64,000 nt of DNA. It comes from Verrucomicrobiia bacterium (GTDB lineage Bacteria; Verrucomicrobiota; Verrucomicrobiia; Palsa-1439). Under the pieces are notes generated by a model. It saw nothing but the letters and a program-made list of their open reading frames with translations, had not been told where the DNA came from and searched no databases. The stretch is taken from positions 30,565 through 94,564 of the forward strand of contig DATKNW010000041.1 in NCBI GenBank assembly GCA_035541135.1, read 5' to 3'. A program made the translations under genes and the position numbers. Numbering within the stretch: the first letter of the stretch is position 1; every line of letters starts with the position of its first letter. This document shows, piece by piece, positions 21,150-49,861 of the stretch.

Positions 21150-21163
21150 TGCATACTGATGCA
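21150..21163. promoter_or_regulatory. palindromic motif TGCATACTGATGCA (candidate operator), about 400 bp upstream of pseudopilin 20023..20748
   Basis: Perfect inverted repeat TGCAT-N4-ATGCA. The same motif, or a 1-2 mismatch variant, lies at 22886, 30789, 32020 and 48608, always in intergenic promoter regions of this locus. Confidence 0.35.
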
Positions 21164-21330
21164 CCCATCGCGCATCCCCAGACTCAAATCAAGTCGGCAT
21201 CCTATCATTCAGTATCGGCAAGAACCCTTGCACCCTGGATCGCGCCTGATCGTCACGCACTTCTGCTTCACCACCATGGCACCGGTGTGATCGCTTCGAG
21301 GAAGGACAACCATCACCGCAACACGATTTC

Positions 21331-21936
21331 TCAGGGCGTGACCAACTGATAGTTCGATTGGAACCATTCGGCTGGCGTCGTCGGGTTTTGCGGGGCGCCG
21401 GGCGGGCGCGTCGTCAAGGGTACAATGGCGGCATCCACCAGTCGATGATCCAACATGTCACGTGCCTCCTTGTCGTGATCGCCGTCGGTAACAATCGCCA
21501 GCACCTTGACAGCCCGATTGGCAACAGGTTCGGTTCCCGGCGCGGGAAAACCCATCAGGGACACAATGACACCCGCATCCGCGTGATCTCGCAATACTTG
21601 AGCATACACGTCTGCCGACAGGTGAATCTGACTCTCGCTGATAATATTAACGGTTACGGTTGCCACCGTATGCACCCCCTTCTGGCGGGCAATCTCTCGA
21701 AAGGCAGCTTTCAGCTTTTTCGTTTGATTGCAAGCTTCGCAATCCGAAGGTTGAACGACGACAACGCTTGCCCGGTTCGCCGCCAGCTTCCCGACTTCCT
21801 GCACAGCGGCTTCACCCACCCCTTGCATCAATTTGTCAGCAAATGACATCGGCGGTTCATGCCATTTTACGAGCAACAACATCGACCCCAGAATCGCGAT
21901 GGCCGCTACGAAGCCCATGGCCACTTGCTTGTTCAT
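21331..21936 (-). CDS. membrane-anchored periplasmic CxxC protein, thioredoxin-fold-like (inferred); paralog of 19324..19956
   Basis: 201 aa. N-terminal TM (MGFVAAIAILGSMLLLV). CxxC block SVVVVQPSDCEACNQTKKLKAAF. Collinear with 19324..19956 throughout, including ...DGDHD...IVDLAIIP...PAEWF.NYQ.VTP. Confidence 0.6.
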   Translation of the reverse strand: MNKQVAMGFVAAIAILGSMLLLVKWHEPPMSFADKLMQGVGEAAVQEVGKLAANRASVVVVQPSDCEACNQTKKLKAAFREIARQKGVHTVATVTVNIISESQIHLSADVYAQVLRDHADAGVIVSLMGFPAPGTEPVANRAVKVLAIVTDGDHDKEARDMLDHRLVDAAIVPLTTRPPGAPQNPTTPAEWFQSNYQLVTP

Positions 21937-21998
21937 GCTCTCCTTGCTTGTCGAGGCTGAATTTGGTCGCCGAGGTCAGAGCTCATGTTAGATCGGCC

Positions 21999-22772
21999 TC
22001 ACTTCTTGCTTGGGTTGACGACCCACAATCCCTTTGGAGCGGCCAAGGTGCCGGAACCGATCGTCGCCAGTGCTGGCAAGGCCTCGACATGACCATCACA
22101 AAACAGGAAGTTGTTCAATCCCAAGTGGCGGTTTGCCAGGCCGTTGCAACTGTTGATCTCCGCCCCCGACCAGTCGCCCTGATAGCAGGGACCCGAAGTC
22201 TGGTCACGCTCCGTAATCAGGATCGTGCTGCTGGGTTGTGGGATATCGCCTATTTTATAATTGTACTGACCATACCCATTGAACACATTGGCTCCAATGG
22301 GGTCATCCAAAGAAAATGTCTTGCTGGCCGTACCCACGCTATTGATCGCATAGGACCTCGGCAACTTATTGATACCGACTGACCCGCAAACACACAAGGC
22401 GCCATTCTTTGTGGGGCTCTTGTCGCTTGGGCATACGAGCGTCGGGCGTCGACTGGTGTACAATCCGCCACTACTGGTGACGCCCGTGTTGCCTTGTGCG
22501 ACACCCAAATAGGTGGCCACCCAGCGGTCCCACGCCCAGCATGAGCCGACTTGAACGCTCAGACGGTCATTCCAATCCCCCGCATATAGAAACTCGGCAA
22601 CCCCGATCTGTTTTAGATTGGAGACACAGAGAGCACTCTTGCCTTTTTCCCTCGCCTTCGCCAGAGCCGGCAACAACATCGAGGCCAAGATGCCGATAAT
22701 CGCGATGACCACCAGCAGCTCGATCAATGTGAACCCATCTCCGAGCAAAATCCGGACAAAGTTCCTCTTCAT
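21999..22772 (-). CDS. prepilin-type N-terminal cleavage/methylation domain protein with H-X9-DG (DUF1559) C-terminal domain (pseudopilin-like)
   Basis: ORF 21999..22874. The likely start is ATG at 22772 ([37 protein letters not shown]). C-terminal [12 protein letters not shown]. Eight Cys. Confidence 0.8.
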
Positions 22773-22885
22773 GGGCGATTCCTGTCTGTTAGCATAAAGC
22801 TGCTCACAAGCTCCGTCTTCACTTCCTACATCCACTACCGGCCATATACTACGCCAACGCGGCTGCTGCGCCAATAATAACGCCG

Positions 22886-22899
22886 TGCATACTGATACA
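22886..22899. promoter_or_regulatory. palindromic motif variant TGCATACTGATACA, 114 bp upstream of pseudopilin 21999..22772
   Basis: One mismatch to TGCATACTGATGCA. Intergenic. Confidence 0.3.
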
Positions 22900-23320
22900 T
22901 GACTACTCCCGCTTACGCGCTGAGTTTTACGCAGATATGTCCACGCCGCCAGTTATCACGATGCCATCGTGAACAGCGCATGAGCTTCTGATAAAGCGAT
23001 CCGTCTTCGGGTGCCGGCGAGATTGAATGTGTGGCGCTCCACACTCAGCGAATACAGGTTTACGACACGAGTCACGACATCGCCTAAACAACCCCATCGC
23101 GACTGCTGCCGAGTGCGCGATTGTCGAATCCGGTCCATGCGCCCACCAGTCTTGAAGCACCAACACGGCACACGATTGTCCTCTCAGCAGCTACAGGCTG
23201 AGAGGATCAGAAATGTGGAGAGCGCAGCCGCCGTATTTCACCGAGTCGTGAACGAGGCATTCGTTGTTACCTGTTATGCCTGTTACCGCACGGCTGCGCT
23301 CTGTCATTGGGCTACCGCCG

Positions 23321-23750
23321 TTACGGGAGCAGCACGCGGACACGATAGAACCGTGAGGGTTTGTTCGTCGCGCCGCCGCTGTCCACCATGTTGGTGACCG
23401 CTCCCAGCCCGGTTCCGCCACTGAGGATATTGGTCTGACCAGTGCTCACGAAATTGTTCGTGTAGCTGCCGTTGGCCGTGCCTGTCGTAAACTCCAATAC
23501 GTTCGTGCGCGACGCGACACCCGGTGACCAGGTACTGTCACCGCTGGCGCCCAGATAAGTCACCTTGACGTCCGCGGTGTTCGTCTTGGCGACGCTGATG
23601 ATATGCAGATTCGCCGTGCTGTTGGTCGGGTTGAAACCCGCCAGGAACTCATTGGTGTTGTTCATGCCATCGCCGTCCGGATCAGCCGTACCGGCCGCGC
23701 TCGCGCCGCCGCCAGGGAAGTAGTGGGCCTTCCACGCGGTGTATGAATCC
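23321..23750 (-). repeat. conserved 3'-terminal gene segment encoding the shared C-terminal domain (copy 3 of 4)
   Basis: About 75 percent nucleotide identity to copies 1 and 2 by eye. The protein is collinear through the TSP3-like DPDGDGM..N.EFLAGFNPTN block and the terminal FYRVRVL.P. Confidence 0.7.
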
Positions 23751-26700
23751 GTCACTCCGGTGACGTGCAGGATCACCGACCCGGCGACGCTCGTATCAAT
23801 CGTGTACGTCAAGCTGGGGTTCGGCTTCGTCCCCACGAGCAGACCGTTGTTTACCAACGTCCCCGTGTACGTGATCAGCGTGTAGTCGCCAATGCCAAAC
23901 CCGCCGGCATCGGAGAGGTTAACGATTCCGCCCAACGTGAGGTTACCATGGCCTTCCAGTCGATCACAGGTGCCCGGACTGCCCAAGTCCCAGGCCATGA
24001 TTGACAGATTCCCTAATACGACGTCATTGCTGGCGACGATCGTACCAATCGAAAAGCCCGGCGAGAGCGCGCCGTTCACCGTCAGCGTGCCGATAATCGA
24101 ACCGACGCCGCGCAGTGTGGCGTTGTTGTTGATGACCAGACCATCATTAAACGCGTGGAAACCGGTCCCGCCCGCGGCCAATTCCAAGCTTGCCGCATCA
24201 ACGCCATCGCCCACCGTCAACGTCCCGCTACCGGCGTCGACCGTCGTGCCGCCCGTGTTGAGCGTGCCCGCGTTAAACACAATGGGGTTCCCCGCGATCG
24301 CGCGCATGCCGCCGGCTGCCACCTTGCCACCGGTGATAGCCAGGATGTTGTTCGTCGTTGCCGCGCCGTTCGGGCCAACCCACAAGAAACCGACGTTGGT
24401 GACGATGCCGCCGGAGCTGACCTGGAGCACGTCATTCGTGCAGGCCTGATCGCCGATGGCCACGTTCGTTGCACCGCCAGCGTCCCACGTCGCGCCATTG
24501 CCCGCGACTACCATGGTGTTGCTGGTTCCACCACCGCGGCCAACTTCCCAGTAGGAGTTGATCGCGCTGGTAACTGACGGCGCGCCGGTAAACAACTTGC
24601 CGCCGTTTGTGACGATCAGGACGTTCCCCACAGCCTCCGGGCCGTTGCCCCAAATGATTTCGCCGGCGTTGGTGACAATGCCGCCGCTGTTGATGATCAT
24701 GGTGCCATTGACGCCAGGGGACTGCAGGCGAGCGTCGCCCAAATTCACCGTTGCGCCAGCCAACACCCATACCGTGTTATTGGTGGCGTCACCGACGCCC
24801 GTTGCGCCGTAGCCAATTGTGAAGGCGCCGTTGGTCCCGGCATTCCCATTGATACCCATATTCAGCACCGCGTTGGTGATGACCATATTGCAGAACGTAC
24901 TTCCGACACGTCCGCCGACATCCACGTTGCCACCGAAAGTATTTGGTGAAGAAATGCCGACACCGCCGGAGTTGGGACCGTCATCAAACGTTCCTACGAC
25001 GACCGAGGCGGGCGCTCCCGCGCTGCCGATCTGCAAGAGGTTGCTGTAGCAACCACTGCCTGCACCGACCATGAGTTCGTGGGCGACAACCAAGCTGGCG
25101 CCATTGTTGACAATCAACGAGCAATTCGTGTTGGCCCCGTTATCGGCAATATACACCGAATTGACATTCGTGACGGCTGCGCCCGCGGCAATCGTTACAG
25201 TTTCGCCCTGACAGGTGCCGCCGGGCCCCTGGCCAGGCCGCAGGAAACCGCCGCCGCAATCGACCACGGTGTTGGGATCAGTGATTAGTGCCATGTTATT
25301 GGCGTTGAGGCTGTCCCCGCCGCCGCCAGGGCTACCGTTGCCGACGTGGAGGGTCACACAGAACAACGTGCTGCCGCCCGCGACAACCAACGAGCCATTC
25401 GTTGTCGCACCGCTCTGGCCGACCACCACTTCGCCCATGCAGAACACCTTGGCACCATTGGTAATGATCAGTTGCTCATTGAGGCTCGGCACGTTGTCCC
25501 CGATAAAGATCCGGGCCACGTTGGTCAGCACGCCGCCGCTGGTCACCACCATCATGTCGTTCGTGTTAGCCGCCACAGCGGTGCTGCCACTCGAGAAAAA
25601 GCCAACTTCAAAATCATTGGATCCGAGATCCCACACCGAGCCACTACCGGTGAGCGTCCCGATGTTGTAAGCGTCCCCGGTGCCCCAGCCAATACCGCTG
25701 CCCTGACCGGAGCCGGTATTGGGATTCGTGAGGTACACCTGGCTGCCATTGGTAATGATCAGTGTGTTGTTATTCGCGCCAGCGCCACAGCGACCCGCTA
25801 TCAGTTTGCCCGCGTAGACAACGACCGGCGCGCCATTGCTGCCGACCTGGAACAGGTTGTTACTGCTGATCGCGCCCGCGCCAATGCCGATGTCTCCATC
25901 GACGAACAACTGGGCGCCATTGTTAAGAATCAGGCTGTTGTTGGCACCCGGTCCGTTGTCGCCCGCATAGATTCGCGCGACGTTTGTGACGATCGCACCA
26001 TCCTTGATCAGCAGCGTGTTATTTGTTGCGCAGCCAGAGGGCAGCCCCGCCCCAAAACCGACTCTCAAATCATTGGAGCCAAGGTCCCACGTTGTGCCAG
26101 CGCCCGTGACGATACCCAGATTGTTGAGCGCGCCGCCACCGTTGGCGAATCCGATGCCCGACTGATCTGATACCGCGCCACTACCCGTCGTGTACACCGC
26201 GCTGCCGTTCGTGATGATCAGCGTGTTCAGGCCGGCACTCGGCCCGAGGCCGACCTGGATCGGACCGGTCCCGATCGTAACAGGGGCACCGGCGCCGCCA
26301 ACCTGAAACAGGTTGTTGGACGCACCCTGACCCGAGCCGACCCCAATCATACGGTATGTAAAAAGCTGGCCGCCGTTGTTGACGACGACGTTGTTGCTGT
26401 AACCAGGGCCATTGTCGGCAATGAACAATCGGTTCACATTGGTCACCGCGCCGCCCGATGTAATCAGCAGCGTATTGCTGCGGGTATTGCCCGCCGTTAT
26501 CAACCCGAATCCGACGCGCAGATCGTTGGAGCCAAGATCCCATATGGAACCATTGCCGGTAACAACCCCGACATTGTTGGATGAGAAGCTGCCGGTTCCG
26601 ATGCCCGCCACGCCGGTGGCCAGAAGCCCACCGTTGGTGACCAGCAACTGACAGGACGACCCGCCATACCCAACCGTAAGTGTGCCAAAGTTGGGGACGT

Positions 26701-27271
26701 TGGAAAACACGCCGCTGCCGCTGATCGTCAGCGTACCAAGACCAACATTGGATCCGAGATTGGTGCCGAGCACCGCGCATGTCGTCGCCACCGTCCCATT
26801 CGTCAGGAAATAACTCCCACGACTACCGAAGCCCAACACAAACGCCGGGGTGTTGGTCGCCGTGGCAGTAATATAATTGGTGGCCACGAGCGTCCCGCTG
26901 GCCTGATACACGGTCACCGGGGCTGAGGACGCGGGAGGGTAGCCAATGATGAACGCAGGCGCGCCTGACGTTGGTGCCAGTGTCCAAGTCTGAGCCCGGA
27001 TATCCAGGGTCACAGTCCCGCCGTTCTTAAACCAGTTGCTCGAGAGAACCGCTGGCGCGGACGGAAAACTAACCGTATAGGCCGTGTTGTTGGTAAAAAA
27101 AGTGCCGTCCCCGGTTGCCGGAGCGACCCCGGTGCTCCAGTTACCGCCGTCGTTGAAGTTCCCGCTATTGACGTTCGTCCATGTCAACACGTTGGCTCGC
27201 GCCACCACGGCCCCGCCAACAATCACGGCCGTCACCAACAAAACTCCCCGCCACAAAGCTGATCTATTCAT
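23321..27271 (-). CDS. giant secreted beta-strand-repeat protein (autotransporter-associated beta-strand-repeat-like passenger) ending in the conserved C-terminal domain
   Basis: ORF 23321..27448. The likely start is ATG at 27271 (MNRSALWRGVLLVTAVIVGGAVVARA, preceded by ggagcggtaaggatc). N-terminal LTWTNVNSGNFNDGGNW module. Many ~75-aa repeats of the type GSGSVWDLGSNDLRVGF...NTLLITSGGAVTNV..L.IADNGPG.NNSL..NNGGQLF. C-terminus SYTAWKAHYFPGGGASAAGTADPDGDGMNNTNEFLAGFNPTN...SRFYRVRVLLP. Confidence 0.75.
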   Translation of the reverse strand: MNRSALWRGVLLVTAVIVGGAVVARANVLTWTNVNSGNFNDGGNWSTGVAPATGDGTFFTNNTAYTVSFPSAPAVLSSNWFKNGGTVTLDIRAQTWTLAPTSGAPAFIIGYPPASSAPVTVYQASGTLVATNYITATATNTPAFVLGFGSRGSYFLTNGTVATTCAVLGTNLGSNVGLGTLTISGSGVFSNVPNFGTLTVGYGGSSCQLLVTNGGLLATGVAGIGTGSFSSNNVGVVTGNGSIWDLGSNDLRVGFGLITAGNTRSNTLLITSGGAVTNVNRLFIADNGPGYSNNVVVNNGGQLFTYRMIGVGSGQGASNNLFQVGGAGAPVTIGTGPIQVGLGPSAGLNTLIITNGSAVYTTGSGAVSDQSGIGFANGGGALNNLGIVTGAGTTWDLGSNDLRVGFGAGLPSGCATNNTLLIKDGAIVTNVARIYAGDNGPGANNSLILNNGAQLFVDGDIGIGAGAISSNNLFQVGSNGAPVVVYAGKLIAGRCGAGANNNTLIITNGSQVYLTNPNTGSGQGSGIGWGTGDAYNIGTLTGSGSVWDLGSNDFEVGFFSSGSTAVAANTNDMMVVTSGGVLTNVARIFIGDNVPSLNEQLIITNGAKVFCMGEVVVGQSGATTNGSLVVAGGSTLFCVTLHVGNGSPGGGGDSLNANNMALITDPNTVVDCGGGFLRPGQGPGGTCQGETVTIAAGAAVTNVNSVYIADNGANTNCSLIVNNGASLVVAHELMVGAGSGCYSNLLQIGSAGAPASVVVGTFDDGPNSGGVGISSPNTFGGNVDVGGRVGSTFCNMVITNAVLNMGINGNAGTNGAFTIGYGATGVGDATNNTVWVLAGATVNLGDARLQSPGVNGTMIINSGGIVTNAGEIIWGNGPEAVGNVLIVTNGGKLFTGAPSVTSAINSYWEVGRGGGTSNTMVVAGNGATWDAGGATNVAIGDQACTNDVLQVSSGGIVTNVGFLWVGPNGAATTNNILAITGGKVAAGGMRAIAGNPIVFNAGTLNTGGTTVDAGSGTLTVGDGVDAASLELAAGGTGFHAFNDGLVINNNATLRGVGSIIGTLTVNGALSPGFSIGTIVASNDVVLGNLSIMAWDLGSPGTCDRLEGHGNLTLGGIVNLSDAGGFGIGDYTLITYTGTLVNNGLLVGTKPNPSLTYTIDTSVAGSVILHVTGVTDSYTAWKAHYFPGGGASAAGTADPDGDGMNNTNEFLAGFNPTNSTANLHIISVAKTNTADVKVTYLGASGDSTWSPGVASRTNVLEFTTGTANGSYTNNFVSTGQTNILSGGTGLGAVTNMVDSGGATNKPSRFYRVRVLLP

Positions 27272-27451
27272 GATCCTTACCGCTCCCAACTCAGTTGTTG
27301 TAGTTGTTTCAGAAATCTGTCGTCCCACCTCATCGCCCAGCCCTCGGAGCCACTCCGGTACACAGCCTGCCTGCTTCCCGCCTGTTCCACAGCACCATTG
27401 CTGCCAGCCGGCCGTCAACACGGCCGGCTGGCAGCCAACCAAACACAATGC

Positions 27452-30400
27452 TCAGGCAGACCGGCGACTCCGCCGCAGCAGCGCGATCATCAGGGTCACG
27501 CCTACGCCCATGAGAGCCATCGTCGACGGCTCCGGAATCACGATCGCAATGTCATCCAGTCCCTGATAGTTGTAGTCGACCGAGTATCCGGCCGGCACGC
27601 CCACTACGTTCCCGAATGTCCCGCTCAACGTACCGTAGTCGGCAATCACGTAGGCCGATTCATCCAAGGAAACCGCATTCACGCTGAGGGTCCCGCTGAG
27701 GGTCAACAGACCGGTGACATTCACCACGTCTTCAGTCTCGCTGCCCATGCCGAACACGTTGCACTGGTAGGTGCCACCGAGCGTCATACTGCCGTTGTCG
27801 GTCAATATGCCAACCTGCGAGTTAAGCGAGGGCGACAGGGTCCCGTTCTCCGTCACATTGCCCGCGCCGCCGTTGACATTGAGAGTCCCACTGCCACGCA
27901 GTATCTGCCCGCCATTAACCGTCACGCTGTTGACGTTGGCGATGCCGTTGGCCATCTCCAAGGCGTTATTGCCGCCGCCGCCGACCACAATCGCGCCATT
28001 CTGAACCACGCCGCCATTGGCCAGCCGCAGCACGTTGTTGGTGGTCGCGCCAAACGTGCCGCCAACCGTCAGCGTGTGTCCGCCGATGTCCCAGACAGAG
28101 CCTGCACCATCAACCGTTACGTTGTTGTTGTTCGCGCTGTTGCCGCGTCCGATCTCCCAGTACGTGCCGGCAGCCGAGCCGTTGGACAATTGACCGCCGT
28201 TGGTAACGATGAGGGAATTTCCAGATCCTCCGTTGCCCCAGATGGTCTCGCCAACGTTGGCAACCGTGCCCTGATTGATCACCAGGCTTCCCCCGAATCC
28301 GGACGCTTGGAGGCGATTCGTGATGTTGGCAACATTGCCGACCGTCCAGGTGCCGCCGGCCAGCACGCTCACACTGCTATTGGTCGACGTAGCATTACCG
28401 CCAACATTGATGTTTCCAGAGGCTTCTATTACCGCCGCGTTGGTGACAATTATGTAGTTGTTCAGCGTGCTCGCGCTGTTCCCGATCGTGATACCGTTAC
28501 CTGCGGTAAGAGTGCTCGCCGCACCCGCGCCGCCCACCAAGGCGTAGCTGTTGCTGGCGCCGGTCGCCTGACCAACATTGAAGACGCCGTTGTCGAAGAA
28601 CTGGCCGCCGTTGTTGATGATGATGCCGTTACCGCTTGATGTCCCGGAGTCCGTGATATACATGGCGCTCACGTTCGTCACCACGCCGCCGGCGGTAACT
28701 GTCAGGCTGGCGCCAAACGTGGCCGTCCCGCCGGTAAAATTCGCATACGCCTCATGCAACGCCTGGTTGCCCAGATTCCACATGGAACCAGACCCGGTGA
28801 CCAGCATCGTGGCATTGGTCGACCCGCCGCCGCCGATGTAGCTGTTGCCCGAGCTGAACACCTGGCCGCCGCTATTGATGGTCATGTATGGGTTTACGTC
28901 ACCGACGTGCTGGCCGACCGCGATCGCACTGCCACTGCTCAGGAAGAGTTTACCGCCATTGCTAACGATGACCCCGTCATTATATCCGGGGTTGTTATCG
29001 GCAATGTACACAGTACCCGCGTTGGTGACCACCCCGCCGGAGGTTACCGTCAAGGTGTTGCCGTAGTTGGTGGCGCCAACGCCGATATTGAGAGCCGTGT
29101 TGCCCATATTCCAAACCGATCCGGTGTCCGTGACCAGGGCAAAGTTGTTGCTTGTAGCAGTCGAGGAGCCGACGGCCAAGCCGCCACTGGAAATGAACCC
29201 GCCGCCGCTAACGATCACCCCGTTCTTAGTGCCGCCGGTGCCCGAAGCAATGCTGACCGTGCCAGCGTTGAACCAAATCTGACCGCCGTTGGTGACGATC
29301 AACAGGTTGCCGTATCCGGCTCCGTTGTCAGAGATAAATGCCCTCTGGACGTTGGTCATGACACCACCGCCAGTAACCACAAAGGTGTTGTTGCTGTTGG
29401 GCGATCCGCTTCCACCTGCACCCGATCGCAAGGTCCCATTGCCCATGTTCCACAGGGTGCCCGAGGTAACCGTCGCAACGTTGCCGACCGCGAAGCTGGC
29501 GGAACCGACGGCCACATTTCCTCCGCCGGTAAAGATGTTGATGTTGGTGACGATCATCTGGTTGTTGTGAGAATTCATGCCGCTGCCAACAATGATGTTG
29601 GCACTGCCGGCATTCGCGTTGGTGATAAAGCTGGCCGCTCCCGCGCCGCCCGCGTAGAAGATATTGCCGTTGGCGCCGGAGCCTGACCCCACGTAAACGC
29701 CCGATGCAATCGTGGAATTGTTGGCAAAAACCAGCCTGCCGCCATCGTTAATGGCCAAGCTGTTGTTCACGCCGGCGCTGTTGTCCGCGATGAATACCCG
29801 AAGGACGTTGGAAACCGCTCCGCCCGAAGTAACGAGGAGCGAGTTGTTACTCTGGCTGCTCCCGCCAAACCCAGCGGCAATCCGCATGTCCACAGCCTGG
29901 TTATTCCACACCGATCCGCTGCCGGTCACTACCGCGGAGTTGTTGGAAGCGCCGCCGCCGTAACCAACGTACGAATACCCGGTAACCAGTTTGCCGCCGT
30001 TGGTGACGATCACCTGGTTGCCCGCGCTGCCGTTGCCCACCGTGAACGCGCCGTATGAGCTGGCGACGTTGGTGAAGTACGAGTTGGCGCCGCTGATGGT
30101 CAGCGCGCCCTGGCCGGTGCTGGCGTTACCCAAGGTGGTAGCTGCTGTCAGCACCGAGCCGTTGGTCAAGACGTAGCTCCCTTGGCCCGCGTCACCAACA
30201 ATGAAGTTGTTTGTGGGCACCCCGCCGTAAGTGGTATTGGCAATGACCGCGCCACCGTCCTGATAGACCGTCGCGACGCTGCCGGCCGTCTGCCCGACGT
30301 CAATCGCGCCGTAGTTGCTACCAAGCACCCATGTGTTAGTCCCTGCCTCCAGCGTCACAGTGCCGCCATTAAACCCAGCGGAGTTAACTTCCGCACCTAC

Positions 30401-30649
30401 GCCAGTACTGAAGTACACCGAATAGTTCATGTAATTGGTGAACGCCAAACTATCCAACTGCGGCGCATCCGAGCCGGGATACACGATGTCCCCAAAGCCC
30501 AGGCCGTCATCCCAATTCGCCGGATCCAGATAGTTGCCGCTGCCCAGATTTGTCCACGTCAAACTCTGTTGCGCTTGCACGGTCCTGCTCACCATCATGA
30601 CCGCCGCAAACATGACCAAAATCCACATCAAGACACTCGACTTCCTCAT
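27452..30649 (-). CDS. PEP-CTERM sorting-domain surface protein with autotransporter-associated beta-strand-like repeats
   Basis: 1065 aa. Signal peptide MRKSSVLMWILVMFAAVMMVSRTVQA. Same N-terminal module as 23321..27271 (LTWTNLGSGNYLDPANW). Repeats ...NNSLLVTSGGAVSNVLRVFIADNSAGVNNSL.INDGGRL.... C-terminus IVIPEPSTMALMGVGVTLMIALLRRSRRSA is the PEP motif, TM helix and Arg-rich tail. Confidence 0.8.
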   Translation of the reverse strand: MRKSSVLMWILVMFAAVMMVSRTVQAQQSLTWTNLGSGNYLDPANWDDGLGFGDIVYPGSDAPQLDSLAFTNYMNYSVYFSTGVGAEVNSAGFNGGTVTLEAGTNTWVLGSNYGAIDVGQTAGSVATVYQDGGAVIANTTYGGVPTNNFIVGDAGQGSYVLTNGSVLTAATTLGNASTGQGALTISGANSYFTNVASSYGAFTVGNGSAGNQVIVTNGGKLVTGYSYVGYGGGASNNSAVVTGSGSVWNNQAVDMRIAAGFGGSSQSNNSLLVTSGGAVSNVLRVFIADNSAGVNNSLAINDGGRLVFANNSTIASGVYVGSGSGANGNIFYAGGAGAASFITNANAGSANIIVGSGMNSHNNQMIVTNINIFTGGGNVAVGSASFAVGNVATVTSGTLWNMGNGTLRSGAGGSGSPNSNNTFVVTGGGVMTNVQRAFISDNGAGYGNLLIVTNGGQIWFNAGTVSIASGTGGTKNGVIVSGGGFISSGGLAVGSSTATSNNFALVTDTGSVWNMGNTALNIGVGATNYGNTLTVTSGGVVTNAGTVYIADNNPGYNDGVIVSNGGKLFLSSGSAIAVGQHVGDVNPYMTINSGGQVFSSGNSYIGGGGSTNATMLVTGSGSMWNLGNQALHEAYANFTGGTATFGASLTVTAGGVVTNVSAMYITDSGTSSGNGIIINNGGQFFDNGVFNVGQATGASNSYALVGGAGAASTLTAGNGITIGNSASTLNNYIIVTNAAVIEASGNINVGGNATSTNSSVSVLAGGTWTVGNVANITNRLQASGFGGSLVINQGTVANVGETIWGNGGSGNSLIVTNGGQLSNGSAAGTYWEIGRGNSANNNNVTVDGAGSVWDIGGHTLTVGGTFGATTNNVLRLANGGVVQNGAIVVGGGGNNALEMANGIANVNSVTVNGGQILRGSGTLNVNGGAGNVTENGTLSPSLNSQVGILTDNGSMTLGGTYQCNVFGMGSETEDVVNVTGLLTLSGTLSVNAVSLDESAYVIADYGTLSGTFGNVVGVPAGYSVDYNYQGLDDIAIVIPEPSTMALMGVGVTLMIALLRRSRRSA

Positions 30650-30788
30650 TGTCGTGATCCCTTCATTTTTGGTAGGTCCACTCGCTTATCCCGTCCCACT
30701 TGTCACAAATGCTTTCTCTCGCTAGCACTTTCTCTCGCTGCGTCACCCATCTTATTTGGCGCGGCAAATAGCAGCAAGATCAACGTGA

Positions 30789-30802
30789 TGCATACTGATG
30801 CA
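30789..30802. promoter_or_regulatory. palindromic motif ATGCATACTGATGCAT (16-bp form) in the divergent region between the PEP-CTERM gene and the LacI gene
   Basis: Extended 16-bp form (30788..30803) is two self-palindromic ATGCAT hexamers separated by ACTG. It lies ~140 bp upstream of 27452..30649 and ~25-60 bp upstream of the LacI start. Confidence 0.4.
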
Positions 30803-30825
30803 TTTGGCTTCCATTTCCGCTCCGC

Positions 30826-31905
30826 TTGGCGTATTCTGCTCTCGTTTTTGACAGAGTACGTATGGAACAGACGCCTCCAAAGCCGCGTATTAGTTTGCAC
30901 GATATTGCCCGGCGACTGAACGTAAGTCAGCCGACCGTCTCGCGCGCGTTGAAAGACGATCCCCGCATTTCCATCGCCACGCGTGAACGGGTGCAACGCG
31001 TCGCCCGCGAGATGGGGTACCAGCCCGATCCGATGCTCACGGCACTCGCCCATTACCGCCGCGGAAAAACTCAAACGCCCGTCAGTTCTGCGCTTGCCTG
31101 GATCAACCGCTGGACAAAACCGGAGCAACTCCGTCGACACCAGGAATTCGAGTTATACTGGAAAGGCGCGACGCAAGAAGCTGAACGTTGCGGGTATCGG
31201 CTTGAGGAGTTTGTCTGCGATGAGCGCTTGCCACTGCCCAGGCTGGAGAAAATTCTTCTGACCCGCAATATCCGTGGCATTCTGATTCCGCCGCATCTTT
31301 CCTGCCCCGACTGGGGCGATTTTGATTGGGCCCAGTTTTGCGTAGTCCGATTCGGTCATTCCATCGACACACCTCGCGCCCACCTGGTCACCAGCGACCA
31401 ACTGACCGACAGTTTGATGGCCTTTCAGCACATCCTGAAAATGGGATACCGGCGGATCGGCTTTGTAGCCGCCGACCAACCGCATATCCGATTCAAGGCC
31501 GGCTATTTATTTGCCCAGTTAACTCTCGATCTGAAACAACGGCTTCCGTTGCTGGATTTGACAGACCCCAACTCCGAGGAGGGCAAGCGGCGACTAGCCT
31601 CGTGGTTGAAGCAGGTCCAGCCAGACGCGATTCTTACGGATGTCGCCCCTTTGCGAGATATGCTCTCCAAACTTCGTTGGCGCGTGCCCGAGGACGTTGG
31701 ACTGGCCGCCCTGAGCGTGCTGGATGGAAACGCCGACGCCGGAATTTATCAGAATTCAGCCGAGATTGGGCGGGCGGCGGTGCAATTGGTCATTTCGTTG
31801 ATCCACCACAATGAACGCGGCGTTCCCGAGGTTTGCCGCGAACTACTTGTCGAAGGTCAATGGGTCGATGGTCAAACGCTGCCAACACGTAATGGCAAAC
31901 GCTGA
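30826..31905 (+). CDS. LacI family transcriptional regulator
   Basis: N-terminal HTH ISLHDIARRLNVSQPTVSRALKDDPRISIATRERVQRVAREMGYQPD followed by a periplasmic-binding-protein-like sugar-sensor domain. Alternative start ATG at 30862 (MEQTPPKP). Confidence 0.85.
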   Translation: MAYSALVFDRVRMEQTPPKPRISLHDIARRLNVSQPTVSRALKDDPRISIATRERVQRVAREMGYQPDPMLTALAHYRRGKTQTPVSSALAWINRWTKPEQLRRHQEFELYWKGATQEAERCGYRLEEFVCDERLPLPRLEKILLTRNIRGILIPPHLSCPDWGDFDWAQFCVVRFGHSIDTPRAHLVTSDQLTDSLMAFQHILKMGYRRIGFVAADQPHIRFKAGYLFAQLTLDLKQRLPLLDLTDPNSEEGKRRLASWLKQVQPDAILTDVAPLRDMLSKLRWRVPEDVGLAALSVLDGNADAGIYQNSAEIGRAAVQLVISLIHHNERGVPEVCRELLVEGQWVDGQTLPTRNGKR

Positions 31906-32019
31906 TGCACCGATCGCAGCTTATACGCAACCACTTACACGATATTATGGCGCCATATATACAGGTGACTTCGACAAACTCGTTGGCCACGTCGCATAAC
32001 TTGAGCGCGGCCCTGATGG

Positions 32020-32033
32020 TTATACTGATGCAT
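32020..32033. promoter_or_regulatory. degenerate copy of the palindromic motif (GTTATACTGATGCA) upstream of the heparinase/GH operon
   Basis: Right arm and spacer are conserved and the left arm is degenerate. The site is ~315 bp upstream of ATG 32349. The downstream region is locally AT-richer (tattatgcgtactccatcatgaatcc). Confidence 0.25.
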
Positions 32034-32348
32034 ACACATCACAAGAGTATTATGCGTACTCCATCATGAATCCTCATAACGCGCCAATATACGAGATACG
32101 TGCTCGCAGCCTTGTCACAGCGTTCACGCCCCTTCCAATAAGGATTGGAGAGGAGAACTCGCTACTGGTTGATGGCGCAATTAGAAGAAGGACTGATCGC
32201 CCGTGATCTCGTTACACCAACGACTAACAACCGCCGCGCAACCAGACCGGGAACGTTCTGAGTCGAAAAGAATTGACGTTACTGCGAACATCCTGTTTTC
32301 TACGAGCAGTTGTTTGACGGTGCGAGCGCATTTCTACGTCACATAACC

Positions 32349-34547
32349 ATGAATTCTTACAGTTCATTCTTCACTTGGATCAACACTGATAGGCCGGGCC
32401 TCGAACATGTGAGGGCAAAGGCGGACGCCAGGCAATTTGAGGAGGCGGCCGAGGCGCTACTGGCCTATTATCGGACGCGGAAAGGCGTCAATTACTACAA
32501 CGGTTGGGACAGGCGCGAGTTGAATTCCCAGTATGACACCACCCAGGCCGACCAAATTTGCCAAAATCACATACTGGGCCAGAAACTGCCGCAGGACATT
32601 GATTGGCAGGCGGACCCGCACCACGACCCTGAATGGAAGTATTGCCTTCACCGACACGAGTACTTAACCGAATTAGGCCGTGCATATTGGTACACCGGCA
32701 ACGAGAAGTACACCCTGGCGTTCAAGCGGCTTCTCACCGACTGGATCAAGAAGAATCCGATGCCGGACCTGGAATGGATGCTGAACGTGCCGAGCGAAAC
32801 GAGCCGGATGCACTTCATGAGGATGGGCAACTGGAGGCCGCTGACACTTGGCATCCGCATGTACACCTCGTTTGTCCCGTGTTTTTATCACTTCCTGCAC
32901 TCCCCCAACTTCACACCGGATTTTCTCGTTCAGATGCTCACCTCGATGGTGGAACACGCCCGGCATACGCGACTGTATTACACGCGGCATAAGAGCTACT
33001 TCAACGTGTCACCCAACTGGGGATTGATGGAGTCGAACGGCCTCGCCCACATGGGCATCTTGTTCCCGGAATTCAAGGAGTCGACGGACTGGCAGGTCGA
33101 GGCGATGTCGCGGTTTGAGGAACAGGCGCGGATGCAGGTGCTTCCCGACGGGATGCAAGTCGAGCGCGCCTCGGGCTATCATCTGGTCTGCACGTTCTGC
33201 TTTCTGCAGATTCTTGACCTGGCCCTGCGCAACAACATCCGCGTAAGCGACACGTACAAGAAGGTCGCCGAGTCGATGATTGACTGGGTCATGAGTGTGA
33301 TGAAACCGCACGGCGTCTACCCGATGTTGAAAGACGGCGACGAAAGCGATGTCTTCGGCGTGCGCGCGTCGTATGGGTTGTGGGAGGACATTAACAACCT
33401 GAACATGCTCGAAGACGCCAACGATCTGCGCTGGGTGCTCAAGACCGGCGCGCGCTTGTTCGACCGACCGGACATGTTGTCCGTGGCAACACATGGCAAG
33501 TCCGGGCACAAACCCAAGATCGGTTCCGTCGCCCTGCGCGAATCCGGCTTCTATACGATGCGGACTGGTTGGGAGCACGACGACCTTTATTCGATATTCA
33601 CCTGCGGGGAATTGGGCGTAATGGACCAAAGCTGCGTGCACGGCAACGCCGATGCGCTAAGCCTCGACCTATCCGGTTTTGGGGAGACGTTGCTCATCGA
33701 CCCGGGCCGGTATATGTACGAAGGTCCGTACCGGATTTGGTTTAAATCCACCAAAGCCCATAACACGATCGTCGTGGACGGCCAGGATTCTTCGGAGCTT
33801 GCCGACGGATGGATGTTCAAGACCAAGGCGAACAGTACGCTGAACTGCTGGGCCGCGACGGATCAGTTTGACTATGTGGATGGCTGGCATGACGGCTACC
33901 AACGACTGAAAGACCCGGTCACGCACCGTCGCCGCATCGTGTTCATCAAACCCTGTTTCTGGCTCGTCCTCGATGAACTAACGGCCGGCGCGCCCCACTT
34001 GTACGACCAGTATTTTCATTTCGGCGCTGACGCCGAACTCACCCAGGGTGACAATCTCTCCTTCACGGGCCGGTACAAAAACGGGGCGGGTATCATGATC
34101 AGCCCGTTGATCAGCAACGGGCTCAAGGTGGAGACCTATCGCGGCAGCACTGATCCGATCCAAGGCTGGGTTTCGTACGATTACGGAGTCAAGCGGCCGG
34201 CCCACGCGCTGAAGTTTTCCAAATCGGACAACCAGACGACGTATTTCGCAACGCTCCTGGTGCCGTTCAAGAATCGACCAAGGGCATACCAGGCAGAGGT
34301 TCTCAACGAGAAGGCATACCGCATAACTGATGATGCCGGCTCGCATTTGATTCTATTCTCAGACGGCTCCGAAACCAAGCAGGGTGACTTTGAATTTGAC
34401 GGTGAAGTGTTATGTGCACGGTTCGACAATCGCGGCAGATTGACAACTTGTTCTGGAGCGCACACTTCACTTATCAACTATAAGGGGAAACGATTACTGG
34501 ATTCCGTCGGGCGCATGAAAATAGATGCGGGCAACGTGATGTCTTAA
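32349..34547 (+). CDS. heparinase II/III-like protein (polysaccharide lyase-like), no signal peptide
   Basis: ORF 32310 uses TTG and the first ATG is at 32349. Heparinase II/III N- and C-domain blocks: DPEWKYCLHRHEYLTELGRAYWYTGNEKY; NWGLMESNGLAHMGILFPEF; CVHGNADALSLDLSGFGETLLIDPGRYMY; KAHNTIVVDGQDS. Confidence 0.8.
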   Translation: MNSYSSFFTWINTDRPGLEHVRAKADARQFEEAAEALLAYYRTRKGVNYYNGWDRRELNSQYDTTQADQICQNHILGQKLPQDIDWQADPHHDPEWKYCLHRHEYLTELGRAYWYTGNEKYTLAFKRLLTDWIKKNPMPDLEWMLNVPSETSRMHFMRMGNWRPLTLGIRMYTSFVPCFYHFLHSPNFTPDFLVQMLTSMVEHARHTRLYYTRHKSYFNVSPNWGLMESNGLAHMGILFPEFKESTDWQVEAMSRFEEQARMQVLPDGMQVERASGYHLVCTFCFLQILDLALRNNIRVSDTYKKVAESMIDWVMSVMKPHGVYPMLKDGDESDVFGVRASYGLWEDINNLNMLEDANDLRWVLKTGARLFDRPDMLSVATHGKSGHKPKIGSVALRESGFYTMRTGWEHDDLYSIFTCGELGVMDQSCVHGNADALSLDLSGFGETLLIDPGRYMYEGPYRIWFKSTKAHNTIVVDGQDSSELADGWMFKTKANSTLNCWAATDQFDYVDGWHDGYQRLKDPVTHRRRIVFIKPCFWLVLDELTAGAPHLYDQYFHFGADAELTQGDNLSFTGRYKNGAGIMISPLISNGLKVETYRGSTDPIQGWVSYDYGVKRPAHALKFSKSDNQTTYFATLLVPFKNRPRAYQAEVLNEKAYRITDDAGSHLILFSDGSETKQGDFEFDGEVLCARFDNRGRLTTCSGAHTSLINYKGKRLLDSVGRMKIDAGNVMS

Positions 34548-44573: not shown

Positions 44574-44582
44574 CTGTGGCGT

Positions 44583-45692: not shown

Positions 45693-46100
45693 GGCACCAG
45701 TCGAATGCGATAGAACCGGGATGGGGCATTGGTGGCCCCACCGGGATCCGTATAGTTCGTGACCGCCCCGCCCGCGATGGGAAGGACTGTCAGGGAGTTG
45801 ACAATGTCGACGAAGTTATTGCTGTATCCACCGCTGGCGTCGCCGCCACTGACCTGCACCATGTTGGTGCGCACGCCAGCCGTCGTCCAAGCAACCACAA
45901 CATCGCTGGTCTCCCGCGCCACGGACAGGATCCGGAACACCGATGCCGGGTTGGTCGGGTCCAACCCTGCCAAAAACTGATTGGTGTTGCTCATGCCCTT
46001 GCCAAGCGGATCCGCATTGGCCGCAGCCTGTGGGCAATTGGTGCAATTGAAGTGTTGCATCTGCCATTGCTGGAAGATCGACAGGACATATGCGCTGGCC
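45689..46100 (-). repeat. conserved 3'-terminal gene segment encoding the shared C-terminal domain (copy 4 of 4, most diverged)
   Basis: Retains the block ctgattggtgttgctcatgcccttgccaagcggatccgcattggccgcagcctgtgggca, near-identical to copies 1 and 2. Elsewhere it is more diverged. Confidence 0.65.
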
Positions 46101-48235
46101 GCGCCGGAATTCGCGCTCTCGCCACCGGCATTGACCGCCGACACCACATAGTAGTATGTCGTGCCATCGACGACGGTGGTATCGGTGTACGCGGTCGCCA
46201 CCACGTTCGATGCGATGGTGGTATAGGGCCCGCCGGCAACGGTCGAACGCTTCGCGTTGTAGCCGGTTGCTCCGGATGAGGCGTTCCATTTCAAGCTCAC
46301 CTGCGAATTGGAGGCAGTTGCTGTAAGACCCGTGGGCGCCGACGGTGGACTGGCCGTCTGACCCCAGAATTCGACATCCGCCACATTGCAATAGCCACTG
46401 GCGGGACCGAGATACCGCACGTAGCGGTAGCTGTTGGTGTTGGTAATCGCCTGCACCGTCAAGCTCCCATCGGTCGGAGTAACGCTGATTGTAAACAGAG
46501 TCACCGGCGTCGTGAAGGTGGCGTTGGTCGCAGCCTGGAAGACTCCCCCCACCATGCGCGACGCGTACGTGCTCCTTGGGCAATACTTGATCTGCGTGAT
46601 GGGGTACGCATTGCTCAAGTCCAGCCCGGCCCAATCCCCGCTGGCATCCGGTCCGTCAAAGAAATTGTTGAGGCTGCCGTCAAACACGTTCGTGATCGTA
46701 TTGCCGCCATTGGCGTACGATCCCGACGTGCCAATGAGGGTGCTGCTCAGTTTCGCGACATTGGTTGCAGTCACGCTGGCTTCGGACGAATTGGTTGTTT
46801 CACCGCTGGATGACAGCGCCGAGACCACGTAGTAGTAGGTGGTGTCATTGATCAATCCGCTGTCCGTATAAATCGTGCTGGTTGTATTCGACACAACGAT
46901 CGAGTATGGCCCGCCACTAACGGTGGCGCGCTTGAGGTTGTAGCCGGTGGCACCGGCCGAACCCCACCATTGCAGGACGACCGATAATCCGTTGTTGACC
47001 ACGTTTGTTGCCGTCAGCCCGCCGGGAGCGACAACTGATGAGAGGGGGTTCAGCGAATGTGTCAACGTGGTATAGCCCAGTTGGTCATACCCGCCGCTGT
47101 TGGGGCCGTAATTGCCGCCGCCACCTTCCGGCCGCACCATGGCCGCGTATTGCGACGTGTACGGCGCGGCGACGCCTTTGAGATTAACCCAGTGGTTGTA
47201 CCACAGGTCCCAGGTCGGACGGATGTCCCCGAGACTGTTCGTGGAAATCACGGTTTGAATCACCGGGTCGCACGTGTCGTAGCAGACATACGGCACCGGG
47301 TTTGTGAGGTTATATTTGGCGAAATACTCGACCAACATCAACGGTTTGTTGTTTTCATACCCAAACAGATCCAGTCCCTGATTCCAGGCAATCTGGCAGA
47401 ACGCGCCGAGCAACGCGACGTCGAGGCCCGAATGCCCCTGATCGCGCCCTTCCTCCTGACCCTGCCCAACATATCCTGGATGGATATAATCAACGGTCCG
47501 ATCAATGTTTCCGTTTCCGATCCCGCTTTCGAAATAGGTGATGGCTTCGTTGAATTTATTGCTGTCATCACACACAATGCCAATCGCCAGCATCGAGGTC
47601 ATGTTGCACAAATCCCAGTTGGCCCAATAATGAGTGGTGCAGGCATTGTTGTGATTGACGAGAAAATTGTGGTTCAGCGGGTAGAACACATTCGTCATCA
47701 TTTTTTGGAACTGGGCAAAGTTCAGCGGTTGCCAGCCGCTGTAGTTGCGCATCAGTTCTCCGGCACAGGCAAATTCATATCCGTAGAGCCCCGAAGCCAG
47801 ATACTCGTTAGAATCACCGGAAACATTTGTCAGGGTGGAGGACCAGGCATTCATGATCTGCACCGACTTGTTGGCATAATTGGTGTCGCCGCTGCCGTAG
47901 TACCGCAACGCGCACTGATAAGCCGCCGCGATATCGTACATCAAGTCCGGATAGTTCCCACCCGTAGACGTGCGGGTAATGATCGCCTGTGGATCCGGCG
48001 TGTAGTTGGTCTGCGCGTGAGAATTCGCAATTAGGATATTCCAACTATCGATCCAGGGATGATTCCCCGCAGCCACATTGGTGGCCATGCGGTTGAGATC
48101 GGCGGCCGTCTCCAAAGCGCCGGGATGCACGAACTGGCCGCGTGCGGGCAGGATCGCCACCGTCAGTAGGAACAGAAACGCTATTGGCAAGATCCCTTGA
48201 ATTCCGTTCTTCAAAGAAGTTGGCTCTCGTTTCAT
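45689..48235 (-). CDS. secreted multidomain protein with alginate-lyase-like toroid N-domain, FN3, F5/8 type C (discoidin/CBM32-like) domain, FN3 and the conserved C-terminal domain
   Basis: ORF 45689..48364. The likely start is ATG at 48235 (MKREPTSLKNGIQGILPIAFLFLLTVAILPARG). N-domain QFVHPGALETAADLNRM...NHNNACTTHYWANWD...RDQGHSGLDV is paralogous to the N-domain of 7512..12380. FN3 motif LQWWGSAGATGYNLKR...TYYYVVSAL. Discoidin block NVFDGSLNNFFDG...YRYVRYL...VADVEFWG. C-terminus SIFQQWQMQHFNCTNCPQAAANADPLGKGMSNTNQFLAGLDPTN...SRFYRIRLVP. Confidence 0.8.
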   Translation of the reverse strand: MKREPTSLKNGIQGILPIAFLFLLTVAILPARGQFVHPGALETAADLNRMATNVAAGNHPWIDSWNILIANSHAQTNYTPDPQAIITRTSTGGNYPDLMYDIAAAYQCALRYYGSGDTNYANKSVQIMNAWSSTLTNVSGDSNEYLASGLYGYEFACAGELMRNYSGWQPLNFAQFQKMMTNVFYPLNHNFLVNHNNACTTHYWANWDLCNMTSMLAIGIVCDDSNKFNEAITYFESGIGNGNIDRTVDYIHPGYVGQGQEEGRDQGHSGLDVALLGAFCQIAWNQGLDLFGYENNKPLMLVEYFAKYNLTNPVPYVCYDTCDPVIQTVISTNSLGDIRPTWDLWYNHWVNLKGVAAPYTSQYAAMVRPEGGGGNYGPNSGGYDQLGYTTLTHSLNPLSSVVAPGGLTATNVVNNGLSVVLQWWGSAGATGYNLKRATVSGGPYSIVVSNTTSTIYTDSGLINDTTYYYVVSALSSSGETTNSSEASVTATNVAKLSSTLIGTSGSYANGGNTITNVFDGSLNNFFDGPDASGDWAGLDLSNAYPITQIKYCPRSTYASRMVGGVFQAATNATFTTPVTLFTISVTPTDGSLTVQAITNTNSYRYVRYLGPASGYCNVADVEFWGQTASPPSAPTGLTATASNSQVSLKWNASSGATGYNAKRSTVAGGPYTTIASNVVATAYTDTTVVDGTTYYYVVSAVNAGGESANSGAASAYVLSIFQQWQMQHFNCTNCPQAAANADPLGKGMSNTNQFLAGLDPTNPASVFRILSVARETSDVVVAWTTAGVRTNMVQVSGGDASGGYSNNFVDIVNSLTVLPIAGGAVTNYTDPGGATNAPSRFYRIRLVP

Positions 48236-48607
48236 GGCAGCACTCGGGTGGGATGGGATTTGGACGGACTGTCCGTGCCGCCGCCGGAATCCGTGTAGCA
48301 TGTGACCGCGCCGCCCGCGCCTTGGTCGAACCAACAACTCTCGTCGAGCGCAGGGCTCACCCACCCTTTGGCCATGCCAAGACCCGCGCGCACACGGCGC
48401 CCCGCATGGTTATGAATGAAGGCTCGCACGGTAATCATCGAGGCGAGTGCAACTTGCGACAACATATTGGCAGCCCAAAACCTTCCTCGAACGCTTCGCA
48501 CAGGCCGCCGTGGCCCTATCGAAAGCCCGAGAGCCAGCCAGCGTTGCATCCTTGATTGTACGAGACACATTGTAGATTCCACCGGAAAGAGAAACAAGGC
48601 GAAGCCA

Positions 48608-48623
48608 ATGCATACAGGTGCAT
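48608..48623. promoter_or_regulatory. variant of the palindromic motif (ATGCATACAGGTGCAT) in the divergent region between 45689..48235 and 48965..49840
   Basis: Two mismatches to ATGCATACTGATGCAT. Lies in a 729-bp intergenic region. Confidence 0.25.
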
Positions 48624-49840: not shown

Positions 49841-49861
49841 GCAGGGTCTCGCGTAACCCCG

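Follow-up and report, generated by a model that had tools for sequence, protein, structure and literature searches.

In the survey of LacI-family regulons by Ravcheev et al. (2014; RegPrecise, PMC4052901), 96% of the motifs were even palindromes and 72% of the transcription factors were autoregulated. The central pair was CG for 1173 of 1303 factors and some other pair for 49, 75% of known sites lay within -140 to -30 of the start codon, and the position of a site was used to predict the sign of regulation. Verrucomicrobia were not covered. I consider here a 64,000-nucleotide stretch (the window) of contig DATKNW010000041.1 from a Verrucomicrobiia bacterium (assembly GCA_035541135.1), in which a 16-bp inverted repeat, ATGCAT-ACTG-ATGCAT, recurs between genes of what appears to be a polysaccharide-degradation locus. 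To judge from its sequence and that of its relatives, the repeat is very probably the operator of a LacI-family regulator encoded in the midst of that locus, at 30862-31905.

The regulator-operator pair is itself ordinary in type. As in the catalogued LacI/GalR systems, a 16-bp even inverted repeat lies upstream of a LacI-family gene, with more copies before sugar-utilisation operons, the arms are specified by the recognition helix, and autoregulation is probable. Unlike the catalogued operators, those in the window have C-T at the centre, within a non-palindromic ACTG (A-Y-T-G), in place of CG, which is a known minority state. They are also polar and locked 11 nucleotides (nt) from the -35 hexamer, and three of them lie 320-400 nt from the start codon.

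Among the best matches to the DNA-binding domain is E. coli CytR, another member of the LacI family and, by its DNA-binding domain, its half-sites and its place of action, the characterised protein most like the one in the window. Its recognition helix is STATVSRAL where that of the window protein is SQPTVSRAL. The CytR half-sites, TGCAA/TTGCA(TT), are close to TGCAT, and they too are without a central CG. CytR works upstream of the core promoter by anti-activation, without occluding it (PMC3454398). It differs in its need for CRP sites on either side and in accepting half-site spacings anywhere from 0 to about 3 helical turns, and the two effector domains are unrelated beyond the family fold. 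The window does not hold a CytR-type cassette as judged by spacing, which is fixed at 4 bp in all sites; no search for CRP-like flanking sites was made.

LacI-family dimers just upstream of a -35 hexamer, in contact with polymerase, are found at ackA/pta, where the CcpA cre sites are centred near -56.5 and -55.5, and at OE of GalR, at -60.5 of galP1, which is -55.5 of galP2. The outcome in these examples is set by helical phase. The window operators would be centred near -53.5 of promoters predicted by consensus. The CcpA and GalR sites differ in being centred on CG and without polarity, and they are single cases in global regulons, with no subfamily-wide rule. There is a functional analogy as well to the MarA/SoxS/Rob boxes and to LysR-type divergent promoters, in which a polar site has its orientation coupled to its distance from the -35, and in which a divergently read regulator gene has that site over or close to its promoter as well. 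The protein families are unrelated, and MarA-type proteins bind as monomers to asymmetric sites, whereas here a symmetric dimer presumably binds a nearly symmetric site with an asymmetric core. What has not been described, to my knowledge, is a subfamily-wide polar core other than CG, a fixed coupling of operator to promoter, and a readable recognition code in an unstudied phylum.

The probable operator sites

A first-pass annotation of the window reported five copies of the motif, and all five strings are present. The design is a 6-4-6 inverted repeat. The annotation called it a palindrome, which suits the arms; the central ACTG is not self-complementary. It placed the fourth copy at 32020-32033, one position too far (32019-32032 is correct), and that copy matches only in the right arm and core. 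The motif strings of all five stand on the plus strand, and the predicted promoters associated with four of them are read on the opposite strand. The sites are as follows:

21149..21164, minus strand: operator O-C, TTGCATACTGATGCAC, exact in the 14-mer (21150-21163, TGCATACTGATGCA)
22885..22900, minus strand: operator O-E, GTGCATACTGATACAT, one mismatch to the 14-mer (22886-22899, TGCATACTGATACA)
30788..30803, minus strand: operator O-G/lacI, ATGCATACTGATGCAT, perfect 6-nt arms (14-mer from 30789), 59 nt upstream of the lacI ATG, with its module reading toward the PEP-CTERM gene
48608..48623, minus strand: operator O-Q, ATGCATACAGGTGCAT, two mismatches in the 14-mer (from 48609)
48773..48786, plus strand: operator O-R, CGCACCAGTATACA on the plus strand and TGTATACTGGTGCG on the minus, three mismatches in the 14-mer
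32018..32033, plus strand: half-site and core, GGTTATACTGATGCAT (32019-32032, GTTATACTGATGCA)
32680..32695, plus strand: weak candidate auxiliary site, GTGCATATTGGTACAC, within the heparinase-like coding sequence, compatible with chance

The last of these and O-R came from a scan of the window with a position weight matrix, which gave two candidates beyond those already reported (32680-32695 and, on the minus strand, 48772-48787). O-R is intergenic and stands on the strand opposite to the other sites. I accept it as a sixth operator despite its three mismatches because its surroundings have exactly the geometry found at other sites, as described in the next section.

The 14-mer has 11 matches in the window at up to three mismatches, compared with 4.24 +/- 1.95 in dinucleotide shuffles, and none of 100 shuffles reached 11. 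An 11-mer, ATACTGATGCA, occurs in three exact copies where about 0.03 would be expected (hand arithmetic). A looser pattern, ATGCAT-N4-ATGCAT with three mismatches and no specified core, is not enriched in the window (13 matches, 24 in shuffles), so the conserved ACTG core carries much of the signal.

A gene map drawn from Pfam-supported open reading frames (ORFs) assigns 92.6% of the window to coding sequence and 7.4% to non-coding. All five sites first reported fall in the latter, as had been claimed, an outcome with a chance probability of about 0.074^5 = 2e-6. The regions named in the first-pass annotation are also the right ones: upstream of the two pseudopilin pairs, between the divergent PEP-CTERM and LacI genes, before the heparinase-GH operon, and between the divergent lyase and unknown-protein genes. 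The partial match it noticed at 44548 does lie within a coding sequence and is trivial.

A fixed module of operator and predicted promoter

When the flanks are aligned, four sites of the window share a CAA(G/T) that in each case precedes the 14-mer by exactly 14 nt, and it recurs at L084 and L205 (L-numbers are the loci of homologues, taken up below) and at many sites of paralogues. Read on the opposite strand, the arrangement is operator, 11 nt, TTGnnn (-35), 17 nt, TAnnnT (-10). A composite scan of both strands of the window found exactly five such modules, every one with the 11-nt gap and the 17-nt spacer. In shuffles the composite matched 0.13 times at up to five mismatches and not at all at up to three. 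Five of the six sites thus stand in a module, the exception being 32019. In all five the operator would cover about -60 to -47 of a promoter predicted by consensus, and in all five the non-palindromic core reads CAGT or CTGT toward the promoter. The hexamers, checked against the window sequence, and the predicted transcription start sites (TSSs) are these:

21110..21138, minus strand: predicted P(C), -35 TTGTGC, 17 nt, -10 TAAGCT; TSS near 21103, 355-nt leader; would drive pseudopilin C (20748-20023), protein B (19956-19324), the SSF transporter and probably the lyase-like giants to about 1531
22846..22874, minus strand: predicted P(E), -35 TTGGCG, 17 nt, -10 TAGTAT; TSS near 22839; would drive pseudopilin E (22772-21999) and the 201-aa membrane-anchored protein D (21936-21331)
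30749..30777, minus strand: predicted P(G), -35 TTGCTG (30777-30772), 17-nt spacer, -10 TAAGAT (30754-30749); TSS near 30742; would drive the PEP-CTERM gene (30649-27452) and the giant repeat protein gene (to 23321)
48569..48597, minus strand: predicted P(Q), -35 TTGTTT, 17 nt, -10 TACAAT; TSS near 48562; would drive the alginate-lyase-like/fn3 protein (48235-45689), a 2-hydroxyacid dehydrogenase and ORFs to about 41845
48798..48826, plus strand: predicted P(R), -35 TTGCGC, 17 nt, -10 TAATTT; TSS near 48833; would drive three ORFs without a Pfam match (48965-52383)

The same operator-11-TTG arrangement is found outside the window, in L084, L003, L009, L012, L062, L030/31, L081 and L205. In the clade of homologues whose recognition helix begins with HT, an AYTK/CART core is present at 14 sites; in 12 of them TTG stands at +11 on the side that the core dictates, and in none on the other. 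At forty chance GC-rich matches whose cores are different, TTG is missing from both sides. The spacers between the elements are unrelated in sequence, which argues that the shared geometry is a constraint and not the mark of a recent duplication. Over some 20 modules the operator never overlaps the -35/-10 or the TSS, and there is one distance and one orientation.

Two side observations concern the promoters and leaders themselves. A perfect 6-6-6 inverted repeat, TATTTG-GCGCGG-CAAATA (30753-30770), fills the spacer of the PEP-CTERM promoter and touches its -10; no second copy was noticed, and it could be the site of a second regulator. The leaders of pseudopilin C (20749-21103, about 355 nt) and of the lyase (48236-48562, about 327 nt) have no Rfam match and no obvious ORF, and each may hold an unrecognised 5' regulatory RNA.

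The regulator and a proposed recognition code

The gene that sits beside O-G is as follows:

30862..31905, plus strand: LacI-family regulator, 347 aa, recognition helix SQPTVSRAL, divergent effector domain

Residues 23-68 of the ORF match the Pfam LacI helix-turn-helix (PF00356, E = 4.3e-14), and the DNA-binding domain matches those of CytR, GntR, Cra, GalS and others. The effector domain matches Peripla_BP_3 at E = 9e-10, above the cut-off yet partial. A full-length alignment to PDB 4o5a (E = 9e-13) reaches residue 323 of 347. The protein seems to be without a C-terminal extension of the kind that carries the tetramerisation helix of LacI, and it would act as a dimer. In comparison with NCBIfam it reaches no named equivalog. 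The segment that aligns with the hinge, YQPDPMLTALAH, keeps the lever Leu and departs from the canonical Y-x-P-N-x-x-A-x-x-L-A by N to D, A to L and an extra P-M; the resulting PDPML-x-AL motif, in place of PN-x-x-A-x-x-L, is invariant in the subfamily.

Homologues of the protein number about 2400. To see what that subfamily binds, I drew on 80 genomic loci with homologues (36-63% identity) and examined the regions upstream of 82 homologues. Perfect repeats with 6-nt arms and spacers of 2, 4, 6 and 8 occur in 13, 18, 12 and 10 of these regions, as against about 4 in shuffles (4.2 for spacer 4). Odd spacers are not enriched upstream of the same genes (2-8 regions, about 4 in shuffles). Enrichment at even spacers and at no others is expected of an even palindrome built on a 4-bp core. 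The cores, taken in the reading direction of the regulator gene, are ACTG, ATTG, TCAG, CCAG, CCTG or ACTT, and never their complements. The first-pass annotation had doubted that a LacI-family protein was the cognate regulator, on the ground that the motif lacks a central CG. That objection falls away, since an A-Y-T-G (NYWG) core, where the family usually has CG, is found upstream of the genes as a trait of the whole subfamily.

The arms vary between paralogues, and they do so in step with residues 1-2 of the recognition helix:

Helix QP: ATGCAT-ACTG-ATGCAT (this window)
Helix QS: GGTCAT-ACTG-ATGACC (L077)
Helix HT: CGCAC-AYTK-GTGCG (L002, L003, L004, L007, L009, L011, L012, L062, L066)
Helix HS: AGTCAC-...-GTGACT (L017, L032)
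Helix HV: (G/C)TTAC-AYTG-GTAA (L020, L023, L027, L033)
Helix RS: CTGAC-YCAG-GTCAG (L030, L031, L037)
Helix KA: GTTAA-CCAG-TTAAC (L021)

Immediately beside the core, all 16 H-type sites have C/G and all 4 Q-type sites have T/A. The arm positions that follow track residue 2, with GC for T or P, GA for S and AA for V. Two unrelated samples bear on the Q type in particular. The QP homologue of L084, 61% identical to the window protein, has TGCAT arms (TGCATATTGATGCA) 51 nt before its ATG, and so does L205, of QA type (NQATVSRAL), where TGCATCCTGATGCA lies in a region divergent from a GH88 gene. Of 6 Q-type genes, 3 are preceded by TGCAT-N4-ATGCA, and of 81 other genes, 1 is (Fisher p = 7e-4, an optimistic value, as the related sequences are not phylogenetically independent); the one match outside the Q type has a mismatch and an unrelated core. 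It is because the arms co-vary with the helix, and because Q-type homologues carry TGCAT arms, that I take the regulator at 30862-31905 to be the one that would bind.

Wider searches added little to the Q type. A profile search with the Q-type homologues gave no new members, so that the test above comprises six proteins, and a protein search with the DNA-binding domain alone gave three short fragments. A scan of metagenome contigs for CAA-N11-TGCATAYTGATGCA found at least 120 loci from unrelated habitats, and none among the matches listed encodes a homologue of any window protein. In the case of L082, only 47 nt of upstream sequence are at hand. One further string, TGCATACTGATGCG at L078:13604 in Haloferula, lies inside an ORF, and I set it aside as a chance match.

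The genes found behind homologous operators are of the same kinds as in the window: PEP-CTERM proteins, DUF1559 pseudopilins, giants with PATR repeats, GH51, GH2 and GH88. Pseudopilin and PEP-CTERM genes are targets in L009, L003, L007 and L012. In two sister loci a site downstream of the regulator gene is a proper module that reads into the next operon (L009:4482, L066:11151).

The first-pass annotation also suggested autoregulation. Position makes this plausible, with the operator 59 nt upstream of the lacI ATG, and feedback on lacI from the O-G/lacI site is probable. Homologues, however, do not share a conserved geometry on that side of the operator. A separate element, TTGG(C/T)(G/A)-TAnnnT, recurs on the regulator-gene side of operators at variable distance (30826-30837 in the window; L012:3327 and 9928; L007:9947; L009:2837). 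In the promoter of the regulator gene itself, this element may serve as the -10 region, extended on its upstream side.

How the regulator might act

I propose that the 16-mer, in which inverted arms of 6 bp enclose a 4-bp core that is not palindromic, is bound by a LacI-family dimer whose helix residues 1-2 read the arms, such that QP calls for ATGCAT. The dimer would occupy the stretch from about -60 to -47, immediately before each of five promoters of sigma-70 type. These would serve the two pseudopilin operons, the operon of the PEP-CTERM and giant repeat proteins, the lyase operon and the unknown-protein operon, about 50 kb in all. The bound protein would leave the core promoter uncovered and make a stereospecific contact with RNA polymerase, or bend toward it, at the C-terminal domain of the alpha subunit (alpha-CTD) or at sigma region 4. 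The invariant spacing and the constant direction of the core are what point to such a contact rather than to occlusion. A fixed pattern of this kind is what one expects of factors in contact with polymerase, such as the phase-dependent CcpA at ackA/pta, GalR at OE and MarA/SoxS at their polar boxes, and not of steric repressors.

Taken together, the identity of the regulator and its action by contact from upstream, whatever the sign, seem to me likely. As to sign, ligand-dependent stimulation has about an even chance, contact repression or anti-activation is a serious though somewhat weaker contender, and for anything else the prospects are slim. The content of the locus suggests that the effector may be an oligosaccharide or an unsaturated uronate released by the locus's own lyases.

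Several considerations weigh against this proposal. Local LacI-family regulators are overwhelmingly repressors, which tells against the lean toward activation. The module promoters and their TSSs come from the general sigma-70 consensus, and a stricter sigma-70 scan (at least 9 of 12 consensus matches) called none of them; I keep them because TTG, TA...T and the spacing recur in five of five modules. A literature search found no study of a Verrucomicrobial promoter. Three of the predicted leaders are long, about 290-355 nt. The search for sites covered 64 kb of the genome, so the claim of specificity extends to the window. In the comparison of homologues, where relatedness inflates significance as noted, L083 encodes a QP homologue with no site in the 136 nt of upstream sequence at hand, and the QA homologue of L206 has a different palindrome, CCATCCA-N2-3-TGGATGG, by which the two-residue code is incomplete. 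Finally, the 32019 site has the motif orientation of the others, which is the wrong one for the heparinase operon, and there is no TTG at +11 and no -35/-10 module, so that this operon fits the model poorly. (The L206 palindromes are part of a larger structure: at 1-221, upstream of the gene, stand four tandem repeats of about 38 nt, each TTTCCAA plus the palindrome, with a centre of 2-3 nt, unlike the 6-4-6 rule.)

What might the 32019 site do? The lacI stop is 114 nt behind it, and the ATG of the heparinase-like gene (32349) is 317 nt ahead. Neither inspection by eye nor the composite scan found a convincing promoter for the heparinase operon in 31906-32348. There is a TATTAT 15 nt downstream of the site on the plus strand, so that the site would overlap a -35 position. 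It may be a weak roadblock or a promoter-overlapping site for the heparinase-GH3-GH97-HAD-GH127 operon. Another possibility, also uncertain, is that transcription of lacI continues into the operon, with the site as a roadblock in its way.

The 32019 half-site and the intragenic candidate at 32680 fit a roadblock picture, and this bears on the rival that survives best. It grants the same regulator and operator and supposes an ordinary inducer-released repressor, which by binding beside the -35 blocks polymerase or the contacts of alpha-CTD with UP sequences; spacing and polarity would then be inherited history with no function. Sites that all repress would give the locus one coherent logic. Other clades have the operator only 24-45 nt from the regulator ATG (L023, L027, L047, L081, L031), as classical autorepression would have it. 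The family prior points the same way, most local LacI-family factors being repressors (PMC4052901). Yet none of about 20 target modules has its operator over the -35/-10 or the TSS, and the 11-nt distance and the polarity of the core are kept in two clades while the spacers are unrelated, which inheritance alone would not maintain. I judge this account unlikely.

It is more improbable still that the palindrome is bound by some other regulator, encoded elsewhere, and that the LacI gene is nearby by coincidence. The core without the CG typical of the family would suit such a protein, and only 64 kb of the genome are in view. Against this, in about 80 loci each paralogue has its own arm variant, of the same design, in the same place and tracking the helix, TGCAT arms recur only beside Q-type homologues, and the LacI-family gene is the sole transcription-factor gene found in the glycan locus on the gene map of the window. 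Readings of the motif as a sigma-54 or a CRP-type site fail on spacing and arms, and the arms vary with the LacI paralogue.

A role for the inverted repeat at the RNA level, be it as hairpin, as terminator or as stability element, has a negligible chance: a 6-bp stem with a 4-nt loop could form, and the site at 21150 is 168 nt downstream of gene D, but at four of six sites folding is no better than in shuffles (z +0.1 to +1.4), the best structure at 21150 leaves the palindrome unused, a U-tract is lacking, the predicted TSSs come downstream of the sites, and no site has an Rfam match (Rfam finds one tRNA in the window and nothing more). Chance similarity, or the functionless remains of a duplicated segment, is just as hard to credit, for although the sites at 48609 (two mismatches) and 48773 (three) are not significant alone, the observed count was never reached by shuffles, the sites all fall in the non-coding 7.4%, the flanks are dissimilar save at functional positions, and the composite module is absent from shuffles at up to three mismatches. 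A repetitive extragenic element or miniature inverted-repeat transposable element was also considered and rejected, the only shared positions being the operator, TTG and TA...T, with unrelated spacers between.

The glycan locus

The proposed operator-promoter modules are set in what reads as a polysaccharide-degradation locus of about 50 kb from a soil Verrucomicrobium, which the five module promoters would drive. The same locus is found in the Logan assembly of SRR8879131, and the LacI homologues are named Verrucomicrobiae or Verrucomicrobiota. Apart from lacI, its genes are:

1531-16700, minus strand: lyase-like giants
Next to these, minus strand: Laminin_G_3 protein and SSF transporter
19324-22772, minus strand: two paralogous pairs, each an N_methyl + DUF1559 pseudopilin (C, start 20748; E, start 22772) followed by a protein of about 200 aa (B, D)
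To 23321, minus strand: repeat protein, 1375 aa as the listed ORF, about 1316 aa from the called start (about 27271)
30649-27452, minus strand: PEP-CTERM protein, 1065 aa
After lacI, plus strand: heparinase II/III-like (ATG 32349), GH3, GH97, HAD and GH127
Minus strand: two unknown proteins, 2-hydroxyacid dehydrogenase, alginate-lyase-like/fn3 protein (start about 48235)
48965-52383, plus strand: three unknown proteins

Each pseudopilin pair has its own operator-promoter module. Proteins B and D have an N-terminal membrane anchor and match nothing in Pfam or NCBIfam. The giants at 23321-30649 contain many degenerate repeats of about 150-450 nt (families D1-D15), and targets in other loci (L012, L020, L081) carry repeats of the PATR autotransporter type; large repetitive surface proteins seem to be standard cargo of these regulons. 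Between the PEP-CTERM stop (27452) and the next called start (about 27271) there is a perfect 16-bp GC-rich stem with a GTTG loop and no U-tract (27400-27435, minus strand), perhaps an intercistronic stem-loop that stabilises the transcript or causes partial termination. On its right the locus is bordered by a tRNA-Gly(TCC) (53874-53947, minus strand) directly beside a phage-type integrase gene (52574-53812, minus strand). The pair may mark the boundary of a genomic island; no att-like repeat of the tRNA-Gly end was found in the window.

What the finding means

Verrucomicrobia are major degraders of polysaccharides in soil and water, and the regulation of their degradation loci is almost unstudied. 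The present finding supplies a probable operator together with the regulator that likely binds it, predictions of five promoters and of where they start, and a rule from helix to arm that could serve to read regulons in thousands of uncultured genomes. Lyases and glycosidases would, moreover, share their sugar-type regulator with PEP-CTERM proteins and with the enigmatic DUF1559 pseudopilins. The shared regulator points to a role for the PEP-CTERM proteins and pseudopilins in glycan capture or in the export of enzymes. The polar geometry at a fixed distance is unusual for the LacI family and, if it serves activation, broadens the view of a textbook family of repressors.

A larger claim is possible, and I offer it tentatively: that the whole Verrucomicrobial LacI-type subfamily, with its thousands of members, uses a polar operator-promoter cassette, in which the asymmetric 4-bp core orients a dimer that switches on sigma-70 promoters from about -53.5, with a simple two-residue code for the arms, and with surface and secretion genes (PEP-CTERM proteins, DUF1559 pseudopilins, giant repeat proteins) and glycan-degrading genes as targets. 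If this is true, then LacI-family activators would be the rule and not the exception, and the regulons of uncultured Verrucomicrobia would be predictable from sequence alone.

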